Source: a virus. Taken from it: 40,884 nucleotides of DNA. The notes under the pieces were generated by a model, which was not told the DNA's origin, searched no databases, and saw only the letters and a program-made list of their open reading frames with translations. The stretch lies in UHGV virus genome UHGV-2008032; one strand, written 5' to 3'. A program made the position numbers and the translations under genes. Of the stretch, positions 2,793-20,572 are shown in pieces. Position 1 is the first letter of the stretch, and every line of letters begins with the position of its first letter.

Positions 2793-3956
2793 TCACGCGA
2801 TATTCACCAGTTCAGCAAAAGCGCCTTGTGCCATATTTGTGCCATTCCCCGCCAGAAATGAGTCGATTTGCATGGCATGCTGCGTCAGGTGATTCGGTGC
2901 CAGATGGGCATAACGCTGTACCATCTCGATACTTTCCCACCCGCCCATTTCCTGTAGCGCACTGAGTGGCACGCCGGACTGTACAAGCCAGCTTGCCCAG
3001 GTGTGCCGCAGGTCATGGAAGCGGAAATTTTCTATTCCCGCCCGCCTTAACGCTGCTCGCCATGCCGTGTTAGCATCAGACCGCATTTTGCGCACTGCCT
3101 TTGTTCTCGTTCCATCCGGGCGAACGGATGATTCAGTGTGAACAAAGACCCACCGGTTATGTTTCCCCAGCTGCTCCCGCAGCACCTTACAGGCCGATTC
3201 GTTCAGGGCGACCCCAATCGCCCTTCCTGCTTTCGCGTCCTCGGGGTGAATCCACGCGACCTTCCTCTGCATATCAATTTGTGACCACTCCAGATCGGTG
3301 ATGTTCGACCTGCGCAGCCCCGTCGCCAGTGCAAAAATAACAACTGGCTTCATATGCTCGGGAAGTTCCCGGATCAGGTTCGCCGCTTCCTCTTTGGTTA
3401 GCCAGCGAATACGCTTATTTTTCGGCACCGGGCATTTGATGTTCGGCGCCTTGGCTATCCATCGCCATTCGTTGGCCGCACATCGTAACAGCGCCCGGAT
3501 GAAAGCAAGGTGCGTCGCCTTCGTCGCCAGCGACGCTGGTTTATCCTTAAATTCAGGAACCGGCTTACCTCTTCGCAGCAGGCTGTCCCGTTTCGCCTCC
3601 CAGTTCATTCGATGTTTGCGATTAACCATCGAACTCACCGCCGACAAGATCCTGTCTTCCGTGATTGCTGACAGGTCCATTCCTTTGAAGTGCATTCTCC
3701 AGAATCCGATCCGGCTTTTGTCATCGTCCAGGCTTTTCTTGTGCTGCTTTTCGTTAAGCCAGCGAACGCACGCTTCATCGAACGTTCTCGGCTTAAACTC
3801 ACCCATCTTATCAACTCGCCATGCTTCAGCTTTCAGCTGATCATAGAGCTCCTGCGCTTGCCTTTTGTCCGTTGTCCCAAGAGACCGTCTAATTCGACTT
3901 CCACCAGGCGTAACGAAGTCGCAGTGCCACGTACCGGCACGTTGTTTGATTGACAT
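2793..3956 (-). CDS. int: Tyrosine integrase
   Basis: 387 aa; N-terminal arm-binding-like domain; C-terminal HDLRHTWAS ... VQRYAHL catalytic motifs; adjacent to att core. Confidence 0.9.
2827..2841 (+). repeat. Arm-type repeat TGTGCCATATTTGTG (P' arm, inside int 3' end), tandem with TGTGCCATT
   Basis: Exact copy of 2609..2623 on the other side of the core. Confidence 0.5.
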
Positions 3957-16681: not shown

Positions 16682-16863
16682 ACGCCACAATTCAAACGAT
16701 ACCAGAGCTTCTTATCCAGACACGAGGCAATCAGACCGAAGTGGCGAGGATGCTTTCCTGTGCAAGAGGAACAGTGCTCAAGTACAACCGAGACAGCAAA
16801 GGTGAGCGTCACGTAATAGTTAACGGCGTCCTGATGGTAACGCCAGGCAAAAAGGGAAGATGA
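16678..16863 (+). CDS. ninH: NinH-like small DNA-binding protein
   Basis: ...YGNQTEVARMLSCARGTVLKY... matches the lambda NinH pattern. Confidence 0.6.
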   Translation: MNATIQTIPELLIQTRGNQTEVARMLSCARGTVLKYNRDSKGERHVIVNGVLMVTPGKKGR

Positions 16864-17381
16864 TGAGCATAAGAGAACTAAACCTCACCAAAGAACAGCA
16901 CGATTGGCTGAATTGCTGGCTTGAACTGTGGGGCGCATGGGTTTATTCAGGTCGTCTGGAAAAGCGCATGAGCAGCGTAATAGCGAAGTTCATGGAGAGC
17001 GTAGAGCCGGGAAGAGTTATGACAAGGCCAATGTGCAATGATGATGATGGAATGTTGATTTCTCAGGTCGTCGATTCCGTCATGTACATTGACAAGAAAG
17101 CCTTTGGCATCCTCCTCAGCTACTACGCTCATGGTTCATCTAAGCGAGCAATTGCATCCTACTATCACGCGACTGCAAAGCCACGCAAGATGTGTGGACG
17201 TGGTGGCGAGGGATGGAGAAAACCTTCACTGGCAACCTGTAGAAACGAAATTGACGACATCCTGAAAGCGTCGTTATTTGTTTTGTACCAGCCAATGCAA
17301 AATGCTTTCAAAATGCGTAAACGTGTTGAGAAAGTTAAGCATGTTGCTGTTAAAAGCCTTGACATGCAATTATCCATTTAG
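16860..17381 (+). CDS. Late-gene antiterminator Q-like protein
   Basis: Last gene of the nin region; ...WGAW...RPMCNDDDGMLI... pattern resembles Q-family proteins; followed by a strong promoter. Confidence 0.6.
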   Translation: MMSIRELNLTKEQHDWLNCWLELWGAWVYSGRLEKRMSSVIAKFMESVEPGRVMTRPMCNDDDGMLISQVVDSVMYIDKKAFGILLSYYAHGSSKRAIASYYHATAKPRKMCGRGGEGWRKPSLATCRNEIDDILKASLFVLYQPMQNAFKMRKRVEKVKHVAVKSLDMQLSI

Positions 17382-17388
17382 CCATAAT
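17359..17388 (+). promoter_or_regulatory. Late promoter candidate (PR-prime-like): TTGACA-18-CATAAT
   Basis: -35 at 17359..17364 inside the Q 3' end; -10 at 17383..17388 just after the Q stop. Confidence 0.55.
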
Positions 17389-17398
17389 TAGAAGGTAA

Positions 17399-17440
17399 GC
17401 TGCCGTTAGTGACTCTTAAGTTGCAATGGTGGCTTTTTTT
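17399..17440 (+). terminator. Possible tR-prime-like terminator (weak hairpin plus T7 run)
   Basis: 9-bp stem with three G-U pairs and a 17-nt loop, then TTTTTTT at 17434..17440. Confidence 0.3.
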
Positions 17441-17598
17441 GTTTGCACAACAGGTAAGAGCATTGAACCCGCAGACCTCGCGGAATTGGTGAAAGGTGCC
17501 GCGCAGTGCTCTTATCGTTGTGGTGAACTCAATGGCGAGCTAGCAGATAGGCGACAGTGAAAATACTAGTCATGTAGCTGACCGCCGCGCGTACTGCA

Positions 17599-17647
17599 AT
17601 CGGCAGCGCACCGATGGAAGCCGGTTCGATTCCGGCCGCCACAACCC
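17599..17647 (+). other. tRNA-like remnant (anticodon-arm-like and T-arm-like hairpins, no acceptor or D arm)
   Basis: ATCGG/CAGCGCA/CCGAT hairpin then GCCGG/TTCGATT/CCGGC T-arm with canonical GGTTCGATTCC loop; no matching 5' half found. Confidence 0.25.
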
Positions 17648-17808
17648 AAACTGAGCCGTAGCCACTGGCTATCCTGAATTCATCAGTGATAGTTACGCTG
17701 CGGCCTTCTACACATGACCTTCGTGAAAGCGGGTGGTTCAATTCTGCTGTCTTCTTCACGTTAAAAGAGGAATTAGGCTTCGAAAATGCAAAAACTTGCA
17801 AAAATGAC

Positions 17809-17836
17809 TTGAAAACGAGTTTTGAAACTGCATAAT
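17809..17836 (+). promoter_or_regulatory. Candidate promoter TTGAAA-16-CATAAT upstream of the cargo leader
   Basis: -35 at 17809..17814, -10 at 17831..17836 in an AT-rich spacer. Confidence 0.35.
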
Positions 17837-17918
17837 TCCTATATGCTCGGACGTCAAAGGCGAAAGAGCTTACCCACCAGCGAAGATGCCTTGTGCGGAG
17901 CGGTGGGAAACACATTCA

Positions 17919-17977: not shown

Positions 17978-18529
17978 ATGCACACGGCGATCATTTGCGC
18001 TTCCGGACCTTCCCTCACCCACGACGACTGCCAGAAAGCCATTGGCGCTGGATTACCCGTTATTGCGGTGAATTCTTCATGGCGCGCGGTGCCGGGATGC
18101 TCTCACATTTACGCGGGTGATCTGCGCTGGTGGGATGTGAACATTCCCGCGCTGCCCGATGGCCCCGAACGCTGGTCATGTAACCGGAGAGCACACACCC
18201 GATACGGCGTGAGCCTCTTCCCGACAGATACCAGCGGCACATTCAATTCGGGGCAGAGAGCAATCCTGTTCGCTCACTGGCTGGGTGCCAGTAGCATCAT
18301 CCTTCTGGGCTTCGATTGCTCAATCTCAAACGGTAGTCACTGGCACGGCGATCACACAGTCCTCGATAACCCGACAGCAGCGAACGTAAAGCGCTGGCAT
18401 GGCGAGTTTGCCCGGGTTGCGGCGCAGCTGCGTGGAAGCGTCAATATCATCAACAGCAGCCGCCAGACGGCGCTTAATTGCTTTCGTCGCTTACCTCTTG
18501 AAGCTGCGATCAGCGAGGTTACATGCTGA
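17978..18529 (+). CDS. Cargo protein A: CstII/GT42-like or DUF115-like Rossmann-fold putative glycosyltransferase
   Basis: ATG 17978 with AGGTGA 7 nt upstream, after the terminator; motifs IICASGPSL, VIAVNSS, NSGQRAILFAHWLGASSIILLGFDCS, HWHGDH parallel the GNGPSL and YLSGIDFY layout of CstII-type enzymes. Confidence 0.45.
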   Translation: MHTAIICASGPSLTHDDCQKAIGAGLPVIAVNSSWRAVPGCSHIYAGDLRWWDVNIPALPDGPERWSCNRRAHTRYGVSLFPTDTSGTFNSGQRAILFAHWLGASSIILLGFDCSISNGSHWHGDHTVLDNPTAANVKRWHGEFARVAAQLRGSVNIINSSRQTALNCFRRLPLEAAISEVTC

Positions 18530-19464
18530 ATCCTCCGATTTACATCGATGGCATGCTGGGAATGGGAGATACCATTTACCAGCGCGCTTTCGTCAAACAA
18601 CTGCCTGCTGGGACATTCATTAAGACGGCATGGCCGGAGCTTTACGAAGATCTGCCGGTGAAAGTTGTCCGAAGTGACACCACGCTCAGAACGCAGCGTA
18701 AAAATGAGTTTCGCAGTTCGGCAAAGTTTTATCCGCCGCCATCGCCACGACAGACGAAGCGAATATTTTACGGACCGTATGATCTGCGGCGCGGTTCGAT
18801 ATTTGATGCGATGCGACGCCAGTTCGGCGTAACGCCAGCAGCGCTTGATTTGCCATCCTTTGGCCCGTCGCAGTTTACGCACCAAAAGCCGATCGCCGTT
18901 ATCCGTCCGGCAACGGTTCGTTCTGAATGGCGTAGCGACTCCCGAAACCCTGACCCCGATTACCTCCTGCGCGCATCGAGAATCCTGCGGAAACATTTCT
19001 GCGTGATTAGCGTTGCTGATTTGCAGGACGGGGAAGAGTGGCTGGTGGGTGAAGAACCAGAGGCGGATCTGAAAATGCACGCTGGCGAGCTCAATATCAA
19101 AGAGCTGATGCGCCTGGTTGAGCATGCCGCTGTCGTGGTTACGCCTGTTGGCTGGGCGCTGCCCGCTGCCATTGCGTACAAAACACCTGTTTACGTTGTC
19201 GCTGGTGGGCGCGGTGGGCATAACGCTCCCGAGATAGTCACCGATCCGGCGATGGATTTATCCCGCGTTGGCTGGGCAATCCCGGACAATTATTGTCGCT
19301 GCGAAGCGTGGGATCACCATTGCGACAAACGCATCTTCAACTTTGATTCAAAATTCGAGACATGGCTGAATGAAGTCGTTTTATCAGGAACTGAACAGCG
19401 GGCTGGTATTCCTCCCGGAGCTGGGCATCGGTCGTTATCCGGTTCCGGCATCACGCCCGTATGA
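18523..19464 (+). CDS. Cargo protein B: GT-B fold, GT9 (heptosyltransferase)-like putative glycosyltransferase
   Basis: 7-nt overlap with gene A; N-terminal IDGMLGMGDTIYQRAFVKQL and C-terminal AAVVVTPVGWALPAAIAYKTPVYVVAGG resemble the GT9 layout; Cys/His cluster CRCEAWDHHC. Confidence 0.45.
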   Translation: MLNPPIYIDGMLGMGDTIYQRAFVKQLPAGTFIKTAWPELYEDLPVKVVRSDTTLRTQRKNEFRSSAKFYPPPSPRQTKRIFYGPYDLRRGSIFDAMRRQFGVTPAALDLPSFGPSQFTHQKPIAVIRPATVRSEWRSDSRNPDPDYLLRASRILRKHFCVISVADLQDGEEWLVGEEPEADLKMHAGELNIKELMRLVEHAAVVVTPVGWALPAAIAYKTPVYVVAGGRGGHNAPEIVTDPAMDLSRVGWAIPDNYCRCEAWDHHCDKRIFNFDSKFETWLNEVVLSGTEQRAGIPPGAGHRSLSGSGITPV

Positions 19465-19984
19465 CGAGCAGTATTTCGCGAAGTATCAGCAGCTTGCCGA
19501 CACCGAAACAGGCAGAGCCTTAACGCAATCCCGTATTGAGCTGGTGGCGCGCCATTTTCACGGTCCTGTTCTCGACGTTGGTATCGGTGCCGGTCAGTTC
19601 GTCTCTACCCGACCGGGAACGCTTGGGTATGACATTAATCCGGCTGGTATCGCCTGGCTGAACGAGCGGGGCGCATTCGCTGACCTCTACGCCAGTCAGT
19701 GGCGCGCGCTGACGATGTGGGATGTCCTGGAGCACATCGACGAGCCGGAGCTGGCGGTACAGCAGGCTACAGAGTTTGTTTTCGTGTCGATCCCCATTTT
19801 TACCGATGCCGGAGACATTCTTCGCTCGCACCATTTCAGGAAGAACGAGCACATCTGGTATTTCACTGACGACGGTATTAAGCGCTGGTTTGCAGAGCAG
19901 GGCTTCGAATGCGCTGAACAGAACACAATCGAATGCCAGTTAGGGCGTAAGGGCGTCGCTTCGTACGCTTTCCGCCGCGTTTAG
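19370..19984 (+). CDS. Cargo protein C: class I SAM-dependent methyltransferase
   Basis: Motif I VLDVGIGAGQF, acidic loop YDINPAG, WDVLEHIDEP; no DPPY/NPPW DNA-methylase motif; start overlaps gene B by 95 nt. Confidence 0.55.
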   Translation: MKSFYQELNSGLVFLPELGIGRYPVPASRPYDEQYFAKYQQLADTETGRALTQSRIELVARHFHGPVLDVGIGAGQFVSTRPGTLGYDINPAGIAWLNERGAFADLYASQWRALTMWDVLEHIDEPELAVQQATEFVFVSIPIFTDAGDILRSHHFRKNEHIWYFTDDGIKRWFAEQGFECAEQNTIECQLGRKGVASYAFRRV

Positions 19985-20248: not shown

Positions 20249-20572
20249 ATGAAGATGCCAGAAAAACATGACCTGTTAGCCGCCATTCTCGCGGCAAAGG
20301 AACAAGGCATCGGGGCAATCCTTGCGTTTGCAATGGCGTACCTTCGCGGCAGATATAATGGCGGTGCGTTTACAAAAACAGTAATCGACGCAACGATGTG
20401 CGCCATTATCGCCTGGTTCATTCGTGACCTTCTCGACTTCGCCGGACTAAGTAGCAATCTCGCTTATATAACGAGCGTGTTCATCGGCTACATCGGTACT
20501 GACTCGATTGGTTCGCTTATCAAACGCTTCGCTGCTAAAAAAGCCGGAGTAGAAGATGGTGGAAATCAATAA
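20249..20572 (+). CDS. S: Class I holin, lambda S-like with dual start
   Basis: [20 protein letters not shown]... closely matches lambda S as I recall it, including the Met-Lys-Met dual-start motif. Confidence 0.9.

Follow-up and report, generated by a model that had tools for sequence, protein, structure and literature searches.

In eukaryotes, the tRNA-shaped mascRNA module of MALAT1 is excised from a longer transcript by enzymes that process transfer RNA (tRNA), and in the artificial 'tRNA scaffolds' engineered for recombinant RNA the anticodon-arm position tolerates foreign inserts. The geometry measured by tRNA-processing enzymes is a coaxial helix of 7 + 5 base pairs (bp) without a spacer. 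Among bacteria and phages, YrlA is a non-coding tRNA mimic that combines T-arm, D-arm and acceptor-like elements with a second stem module, and one Y RNA tRNA mimic is cut by ribonuclease P (RNase P) and receives CCA (PMC4201824). RNase P also releases the phi80 M3, P1/P7 C4 and P4 CI RNAs from longer transcripts (PMC5499578, PMC11143913). Small RNAs (sRNAs) of prophages that lie next to the antiterminator gene Q include the IsrK/StxS-type pR'-tR' transcripts, PasD/STnc100 and IsrJ (PMC4825925, PMC7547250, 10.64898/2026.05.13.724894). Here we describe an element at positions 17444-17648 (plus strand) of UHGV-2008032, a virus genome of 40,884 nucleotides (nt) that is as a whole called the window below. 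The element lies inside the Q-dependent late transcript, 3' of Q, pR' and tR', and we are highly confident that it specifies a conserved tRNA-shaped structured RNA.

The segment encodes a two-domain RNA in which a 5' hairpin is followed by a tRNA-shaped domain (Table 1). An unconstrained RNAalifold prediction on 19 sequences of class A, the class of the window copy, returned this two-domain cloverleaf-like fold, with the stem of domain 1 at a pairing probability of 1.0. Within the tRNA-shaped domain, the acceptor-like stem GTTGTGGTG/CGCCACAAC contains 9 bp, one G·U among them, an AA linker separates its 5' strand from the D-arm, and the anticodon arm is replaced by an insert of ~75 nt made up of a long arm and a hairpin. 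An earlier sequence-only reading of this region had described a tRNA-like remnant comprising a perfect T-arm and an anticodon-arm-like hairpin, without an acceptor 5' strand or a D-arm. The T-arm (GCCGG/TTCGATT/CCGGC, 17620-17636) was recovered exactly as described. The acceptor 5' strand reported as missing is present just outside the start of the segment considered in that reading (17517-17525, pairing with 17637-17645), and the D-arm reported as missing was located at 17528-17539, with a CTC/GAG stem and an AATGGC loop. As to the anticodon-arm-like hairpin, CTGC-AATCG-GCAG does occur 5' of the T-arm (17594-17606), but it competes with the hairpin ATCGG-CAGCGCA-CCGAT. The minimum free energy (MFE) of 17510-17655 taken as a single sequence was not significant (z = -1.26); since single-sequence thermodynamics are unremarkable, the case rests on comparison with relatives.

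Comparative evidence came from the closing stem of the tRNA-shaped domain. A set of 90 distinct cores with 48 different acceptor 5' strands was assembled, and the formal covariation count was made on the 74 cores of equal length. When the 9 nt located 5' of the AA linker were compared with the 9 nt located 3' of the T-like hairpin, a mean of 7.71 of 9 positions were paired across the 90 cores, against a mean of 5.50 and a maximum of 5.91 in a permutation control that re-optimised the choice of hairpin. In the 74-core alignment 95.3% of cells were paired (83.7% in shuffles), the covariation score was 0.321 (0.102 in shuffles, with 0/500 shuffles as high), and shifting the partner by one column reduced pairing to ~28%. 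Columns 3-9, the 7 bp nearest the T-like stem, were paired in 94-100% of the 74 sequences, and each of these pairs had undergone 11-31 double-sided changes. The outermost two pairs formed only about half of the time; the conserved stem is thus one of 7 bp, as in tRNA. An independent scan anchored on the T-like hairpin alone found a perfect 7-nt partner in 101/114 units (~23% expected by chance); in 87 of those 101, AAU and a GGCUGA-loop hairpin came next. G·U exceeded A·C in the stems by 38 to 5, an excess from which it follows that the plus-strand RNA is the functional molecule.

We propose a family defined by a 5' hairpin domain, a closing stem of 7 bp directly beside a 3'-terminal hairpin of 5 bp, an AA(U) linker, a D-like hairpin and a variable insert, all of which the window copy possesses. 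Lambdoid phages of E. coli carry three conserved blocks (Table 1) around at least seven unrelated interiors, and allelic variants with common ends and differing interiors were found in CUS-3, HK629, loci L042 and L087, and many genera. The ends of the domain 1 stem are likewise kept, with the interior swapped, in lambda, L042 and many genera; at the locus of the window element, classes B, C and D have the domain 1 and acceptor sequences of the window, and lambda combines the conserved blocks with a compensatory stem, GTTGTGCTG/CAGCACAAC. In most members the D-like hairpin bears the loop GGCUGA and the T-like hairpin the loop AGAUCAGCA, with 5 nt of complementarity between them. Canonical tRNA D and T loops (AATGGC and TTCGATT in the window) occur in class A and in loci L151 and L154; class A is therefore a minority subtype, in which canonical loops replace the GGCUGA/(A)UCAGC pair.

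Pattern scans returned hundreds of loci. Variants were found in Serratia, Klebsiella, Pantoea, Kluyvera, Citrobacter, Erwinia, Enterobacter, Brenneria and other genera by a gapped scan of one genome per species. BLAST searches with a short unit found the motif pair, almost always unannotated, in P1, HK620, mEp460 and Stx2-converting phages, and also in many Klebsiella and Pseudomonas phages, in Erwinia phiEt88, and in Hafnia, Ralstonia and Burkholderia phages. Of 5,426 complete E. coli genomes, 158 contained a class A unit over its full length, generally without annotation at that position, and HK75 is 99% identical to the window over 17300-17736.

A second set of pairings involves the same acceptor strand. 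The first two conserved blocks form a nearly perfect inverted repeat, and because of this the acceptor 5' strand can pair upstream and extend the domain 1 hairpin. This strand has two mutually exclusive partners, the upstream strand (Form I) and the 3' strand (Form II, the tRNA shape). In unrelated units the upstream strand changes together with the acceptor strand, as in CCATCATAAAATA...TATTTTATGATGG and CCAACAAGAAAGAGCG...CGCTCTTTTTCTTGTTGG. An MFE-based swap control for the upstream hairpin was too blunt (5.98 vs 5.24 nt), and duplex energies were used instead. Acceptor strands bound their own upstream region at -16.1 kcal/mol, as compared with -11.8 kcal/mol for the regions of other units, and 14/58 units fell beyond the 1% tail of duplex energies (p = 1.6e-7). 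Pairing predictions placed the acceptor strand in the sequestered state in the nascent RNA of 58/67 units, and full-length RNAs were predicted to split between 32 tRNA-like and 28 sequestered. For the window copy, the upstream CACAAC had a predicted pairing probability of ~1.0 while the transcript was nascent and of 0.71 once the unit was complete.

The window copy differs from its relatives by a 1-nt deletion between 17527 and 17528, found solely in this copy, which shortens the D-arm. All of the other distinct class A sequences from the fetched loci (22/22) have an extra base after GTGAA, almost always G, that completes a GCTC/GAGC D-stem; this stem has 4-5 bp in those copies and only 3 bp in the window. 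The deletion weakens the D-arm and renders the two forms isoenergetic in the window copy (-75.8 and -75.7 kcal/mol), and with the G restored the tRNA-like fold became the MFE structure at -80.1 kcal/mol. Other class A variants showed one-sided T-arm changes to G·U or U·G. The changes of the A2 subvariant (A-U to U·G, and A·C to A-U) preserve or better the helix GGCGACAG/CUGaCCGCC of the long arm, as read from the A1 and A2 sequences in a register slightly off that of RNAalifold.

The explanation that we consider on balance the probable one, by a modest degree, is a two-domain family RNA whose tRNA-like form is recognised by host tRNA-processing enzymes within the late transcript. Form I would form first, during transcription, and the RNA would then convert partly or conditionally to Form II, which the host tRNA-processing enzymes would recognise. 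Cleavage by RNase P would fall at the 5' terminus of the acceptor stem and 3' trimming would take place in the A/C-rich trailer, so that a stable tRNA-like RNA of ~130 nt would be excised and the pR'/tR' leader separated from the downstream late messenger RNA (mRNA), with the upstream helix timing or gating the process. Taken by itself the RNase P step, which is purely an inference, may well occur, although we place it slightly on the doubtful side. Position -1 is U in 56% of units, and real tRNAs occupy or adjoin the slot of the unit in BTP1, P1 and loci L137, L140 and L145.

Several observations weigh against this explanation. The D-stem and T-stem pairing in the 74-core alignment was imposed by selection, leaving the acceptor statistics alone as unbiased, although D-stems and T-stems do covary in sets picked by other anchors. 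The D-loop/T-loop pair GCUGA/UCAGC is invariant, and its pairing is for that reason not proven by covariation. T-like geometry is absent in some relatives, for example locus L139 and lambda, whose interior has no T-like hairpin, and NCCA is present in 5/77 units, with no family-conserved discriminator plus CCA. Two-dimensional energy models put ~40% of units in a non-tRNA form, and the window copy itself has a weakened D-arm. Genomic contexts are heterogeneous, comprising late leaders and terminase, RecT, SSB, CI-like repressor and Sak4-like genes. Finally, the inserts are long (median 74 nt) and mutually unrelated, a feature that a processing signal alone would leave unexplained; their length and hypervariability hint at a further role as payload.

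Among the alternatives, the one that survives best is that the tRNA shape is a scaffold for processing and stability, and that the functional part would be the insert together with the interior of domain 1, serving for instance in regulation, as a decoy or in counter-defence, with a specificity that varies from phage to phage. Processing by RNase P would fit this alternative too, and we regard it as unlikely as the primary explanation without dismissing it. As many as 80 distinct inserts without a common motif sit on the conserved scaffold, their length argues against neutrality, and several insert 'alleles' are found between identical flanks in closely related lambdoid phages. An identical class D insert is shared by P1 and lambdoid phages, and units occur in tandem in L042 and P1. 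Against these observations, the inserts are weakly structured (mean z = -0.74; stem-closed in 14/80), a minimal unit with an insert of 13 nt exists (L126), and no antisense target for the window inserts was found inside the window, where the longest matches were 11 nt (E ~0.3-1.6). Anticodon-arm mimics were not generally enriched in the inserts (6 observed vs 1.7 expected, 2/6 being T-loops), which leaves the specific idea of a decoy for anticodon nucleases unsupported. The most far-reaching version, in which bistable tRNA-shaped RNAs of phages of many Proteobacteria are excised by the host tRNA machinery and their inserts serve as phage-specific effectors (decoys, sponges or guides), is a tentative one that we likewise think improbable.

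The two mutually exclusive pairings track each other between units and are nearly isoenergetic, as would be expected of a cis-acting conformational switch that controls its own operon at the level of transcription, termination, mRNA stability or translation, without tRNA enzymes. In lambda-like phages the element lies directly 3' of tR', and terminators are enriched upstream of units (15/83 vs ~5). Neither form, however, is consistently coupled to a terminator or a ribosome-binding site, and contexts vary widely. Such a switch would also leave unexplained why the stems keep exactly to the 7 + 5 bp geometry of tRNA and why class A, L151 and L154 have canonical T and D loops. We consider it rather improbable, a step below the scaffold alternative.

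The sequence-only reading had offered a decayed tRNA or a small structured RNA, and it is the second of these that stands. A former phage tRNA gene in the Q-proximal slot, now eroding and functionless, would account for the canonical T-loop, the GG of the D-loop, the 3' end in tRNA register, the lack of any score from ARAGORN or the Rfam tRNA model, and the 1-nt deletion in the D-stem of the window copy. The slot does hold real tRNA genes in BTP1, Sf6 and L-type phages, and that reading was correct in placing tRNA genes at this position in lambdoid phages (tRNA-Asn and tRNA-Thr in BTP1). Erosion is nevertheless very unlikely. The sequence is ~99% conserved across HK75 and 158 E. coli genomes, contrary to the lack of conservation in related phages that had been named, together with the lack of a tRNA model score above background, as grounds for discarding the feature, and its 9-bp closing stem is intact. 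A partner domain is conserved beside it, the competitor strand covaries too, and class A substitutions favour transitions that preserve pairing as G·U. For the family as a whole decay is refuted, as the scaffold recurs with non-tRNA loops, unrelated inserts and strong compensatory covariation, and with mutually complementary loops in most members. The feature first noticed is real, but rather than a tRNA remnant it is a copy, with slight damage, of a phage RNA family that is itself intact, widespread and hitherto undescribed; descent of this RNA from a tRNA gene in evolution is plausible.

Far less remains of the idea that the conserved sequence acts only as DNA, as boundary sequences for mosaic recombination or as an attachment site. 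In CUS-3 the flanks carry an annotation as boundary sequences (bsq3 and bsq4), interiors differ from phage to phage in the way that module exchange predicts, and tRNA-like DNA is a common integrase target, the real attP of the window being a thrW fragment. Pairing is kept, however, by compensatory changes between wholly different sequences, the excess of G·U over A·C is strand-asymmetric and points to RNA, and the motif occurs in unrelated phage groups without lambdoid flanks; we judge this alternative highly improbable. Almost no credence can be given to a coding function for the mechanically listed minus-strand ORF (open reading frame) 17529-17915 (128 amino acids, aa) or plus-strand ORF 17426-17560 (44 aa), since the former starts beyond 17736 in the cargo block, which HK75, lambda and the other relatives lack, the latter starts within the terminator stem, relatives have unrelated inserts and indels of lengths not divisible by three, and the Prokaryotic Genome Annotation Pipeline placed nothing over the match in 24/25 E. 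coli records listed, the other (H41) having a hypothetical protein.

The coordinates of the element and of its immediate flanks are collected in Table 1.

Table 1. Features of the tRNA-shaped element and its flanks in UHGV-2008032, with the conserved blocks of related lambdoid phages.
Feature	Position	Strand	Remarks
tR' intrinsic terminator	17400..17441	+	Context only; read from the sequence; the element begins directly after the U-tract
Block 1 CACAAC	17446..17451	+	Upstream competitor; can pair with GUUGUG 17517-17522 (Form I)
Domain 1 hairpin	17453..17516	+	13-bp stem 17453-17465/17504-17516, core TAAGAGCA/TGCTCTTA; apical region variable; RNAalifold consensus
Acceptor-like 5' strand GTTGTGGTG	17517..17525	+	Pairs with 17637-17645; family-conserved 7-bp core 17519-17525
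D-arm	17527..17541	+	Stem CTC/GAG 17528-30/17537-39; loop AATGGC with GG dinucleotide
Long irregular arm, anticodon-arm position	17543..17597	+	Core helix GGCGACAG 17550-57/CTGACCGCC 17578-86; without 7-nt anticodon loop; RNAalifold
Hairpin ATCGG-CAGCGCA-CCGAT, variable-arm position	17599..17615	+	Competes with CTGC-AATCG-GCAG 17594-17606
T-arm GCCGG-TTCGATT-CCGGC	17620..17636	+	Canonical T-loop; stem strands 17620-17624/17632-17636, loop 17625-17631
Acceptor-like 3' strand CGCCACAAC	17637..17645	+	Abuts the T-stem with zero spacer; then CCA 17646-48
Right-flank leader	17649..17736	+	Alignment: common to lambda, HK75, BTP1 and CUS-3; CUS-3 annotation: boundary sequence bsq3
Conserved block 1			CACAAC-AGG-TAAGAGCA
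Conserved block 2			TGCTCTT-NNC-GTTGTGSTG-AA
Conserved block 3			Acceptor 3' strand, then CCAAAC

Upstream of the element, Q corresponds to ORF 16860-17381 (PF06530), and the annotation of HK75 places pR' and tR' at positions homologous to those of the window; in other phages, at least six terminator types were found 5' of an identical block 1. Between identical flanks, phages of the BTP1 type have tRNA-Asn and tRNA-Thr, Sf6 also has real tRNA genes in the slot, and the CCA of the BTP1 tRNA-Thr is in register with the window CCA at 17646-17648 when measured from the shared right flank. Downstream, homology with HK75, lambda and other relatives stops in the alignment at 17736, where a cargo block absent from HK75, CUS-3 and lambda begins; a holin gene follows this block at 20249. 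Among the genes of the cargo (17978-19984) are an ORF whose MptE-like match is below threshold, a 313-aa ORF without a Pfam match and a class I methyltransferase. Between ~17800 and 17950, a promoter-like TTGAAA-17 nt-CATAAT is followed ~100 nt downstream by a terminator, AAGCCCTTGCAGAAATGCAGGGGCTTTTTT, with weak Rfam matches (RF02278, 19.2 bits; isrJ, 17.8 bits). This region has the appearance of either a small RNA or another module of the pR'/tR' type travelling with the cargo block, and the same terminator is also present directly 5' of a unit in the Citrobacter locus L151.

Two further pairings were noted around the element. In predicted folds, GUUUG (17441-17445) and CAAAC (17647-17651) form an extra outer helix that closes the whole unit; this helix is probably not conserved, lambda having ATATCTG at the corresponding position. 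A weak, wobble-rich T-arm-like sequence, GGTGG-TTCAATT-CTGCT, lies at 17732-17748, exactly at the end of homology and the start of the cargo. Considering both strands of the window, 3/40 GTTCRA sites have a fully paired 5-bp stem, namely the T-arm of the element, the thrW fragment in attP (~2755) and the wobble-rich site at 17736. The attP, at 2740-2778, is an exact match to the P22 type, consists of the 3' fragment of the thrW tRNA (ATGCGAAGGTCGTAGGTTCGACTCCTATTATCGGCACCA), and adjoins a 387-aa ORF (2793-3956, minus strand) that is presumably the integrase. It is unrelated to the element described here, and the thrW fragment is the sole genuine tRNA fragment in the window.

The surroundings of units elsewhere were equally varied. 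The unit does not always follow Q, since it was also located ahead of terminase genes and next to genes of the RecT, SSB, Sak4-like and CI-like kinds; nor does it always follow a terminator, as 15/83 units only do so, this being nonetheless an enrichment over the ~5 expected. Units were co-oriented with long ORFs at 56 vs 30 loci, which is weakly informative. In P1 (L384, 2414-2700) the order is tRNA-Asn, tRNA-Thr, unit 1 and the start of a second unit, and tandem units are also found in L042 (1-500). Domain 1 of P1 unit 1 holds a T-arm-like hairpin, AGGG-TTCGAAT-CCCT, with similar hairpins in domain 1 of L217, L250 and L259. Real tRNA genes lie 3' of the unit, directly so in two contigs of metagenome-assembled genomes (L137 and L140) and after a terminator in Rouxiella (L145), and the L137 insert has an embedded tRNA-like segment with a canonical D-arm. 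In HK629 (L004, 1560-2340) an HNH endonuclease gene is located between two tR'-type terminators, 5' of the HK629 unit, and appears to be an insertion into the late leader. Sequence identical or nearly identical to lambda over the stretch compared was also encountered in species-representative assemblies of unrelated taxa (L128, L129, L132, L134, L136, L141-L144, L147, L149, L153, L155, L156, L158-L160, L162 and L167-L169) assigned to Pseudomonas, Oceanobacillus, Bradyrhizobium, Enterococcus and others, on contigs of ~48.4 kb or of very small size; the most likely source is a contaminating lambda spike-in used for sequencing.

If the family is real, much-studied phages such as P1, HK620 and other relatives of lambda hold a conserved structured RNA that annotation pipelines and RNA databases have missed, and it would account for an intergenic block that recurs without annotation in hundreds of prophages of E. 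coli, Klebsiella and Pseudomonas. It would also provide a testable handle on RNase P punctuation or processing of long phage transcripts and on the clustering of tRNA genes in phage genomes. Should the effector reading of the inserts be true, the tRNA fold would be a natural 'scaffold' delivering diverse small RNAs in phage-host or phage-phage conflict.

For comparison with known RNA classes, ARAGORN and Rfam 15 (gathering and E-value modes) were applied to the window, lambda, CUS-3, HK629 and nine diverse loci, and across these loci only real tRNAs and sub-threshold fragments of transfer-messenger RNA (tmRNA) and isrJ were returned. ARAGORN, a check proposed in the sequence-only reading, found no tRNA or tmRNA gene anywhere in the window and none in HK75, CUS-3 or HK629. 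There was no window match to Rfam 15 at gathering thresholds and no match to the tRNA model (RF00005) up to E 10, whereas the real tRNAs of BTP1 scored 55-61 bits in the same tests. Under permissive settings, the sole match to the element was the tRNA-like domain of tmRNA (RF00023; 20.2 bits, E = 3.9e-6, gathering score 47). No prior description was found in Rfam 15, in the annotations of the hits or in the searchable, largely open-access literature; an older or paywalled account is possible.

With tRNA the element shares a 7-bp acceptor stem (17519-25/17637-43) that runs directly into a 5-bp T-stem, a TTCRANY-type T-loop and, in class A, the GG of the D-loop; the tRNA genes of BTP1, Sf6 and P1 occupy the same slot after Q/tR' or, in P1, the tRNA cluster. 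It differs in having a 55-nt irregular arm and a CAGCGCA-loop hairpin, with A at position 33, in place of a 7-nt anticodon loop, in the GGCUGA/UCAGC loop pair used by most family members, and in the competing hairpin domain that precedes it. At the 3' end of the window copy, an 8-bp register gives C + CCA (17645-48) and a 7-bp register A + CCC. As there is no anticodon loop and no family-conserved CCA, the element is not a decoding tRNA. Like tmRNA, it uses an acceptor stem, a D-loop analogue and a T-arm to enclose a large non-tRNA insert. Unlike tmRNA, it has no pseudoknot series or tag reading frame, its insert of ~75 nt folds as two hairpins, its third acceptor pair is U-A (7-bp register) rather than G3·U70, and it sits in an operon leader rather than in a stand-alone gene.

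The sRNAs of the Q region resemble the element in being non-coding and in lying in the late leader region of lambdoid prophages. Pas, STnc100 and StxS-type sRNAs were rejected as candidates, being short, Hfq-type and terminator-ended; the element lies 3' of tR', carries no terminator itself and gave no match to the Rfam models of these sRNAs. IsrJ, the 3' sRNA of a different operon, was rejected as well, since a 34.5-bit match in L263 reflects a shared style of hairpin, trailer and terminator, and the isrJ match in the window (17.8 bits) covers only the cargo terminator. The M3, C4 and CI RNAs are also small phage RNAs, phi80 being lambdoid and P1 also carrying the motif of the element; they are described as hairpin-type RNase P substrates without a T-loop equivalent, unlike the element, and no Rfam C4 match was found in the window, lambda or the diverse loci.

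YrlA was set aside because its order is permuted (T-arm, acceptor-like stem, D-arm), it is closed by a Ro60-binding stem and it lies next to a Ro60/Rsr gene, whereas the element is in tRNA order. The neighbours of the element are Q, the MptE-like ORF, the methyltransferase and the holin, with no adjoining Ro60 (TROVE) gene, and the window gave no Rfam Y RNA match up to E 10. The mascRNA module and the engineered tRNA scaffolds have no sequence relationship to the element and no competing upstream hairpin. If the family is real, it would be a new form of bacterial tRNA mimicry beside tmRNA and Y RNAs, distinguished by its competing helix and its scaffold-plus-variable-insert organisation. Mimicry of tRNA is itself already known; what is new is the complementary loop pair that would replace the elbow in most members, the competitor helix, and a conserved scaffold with variable inserts.

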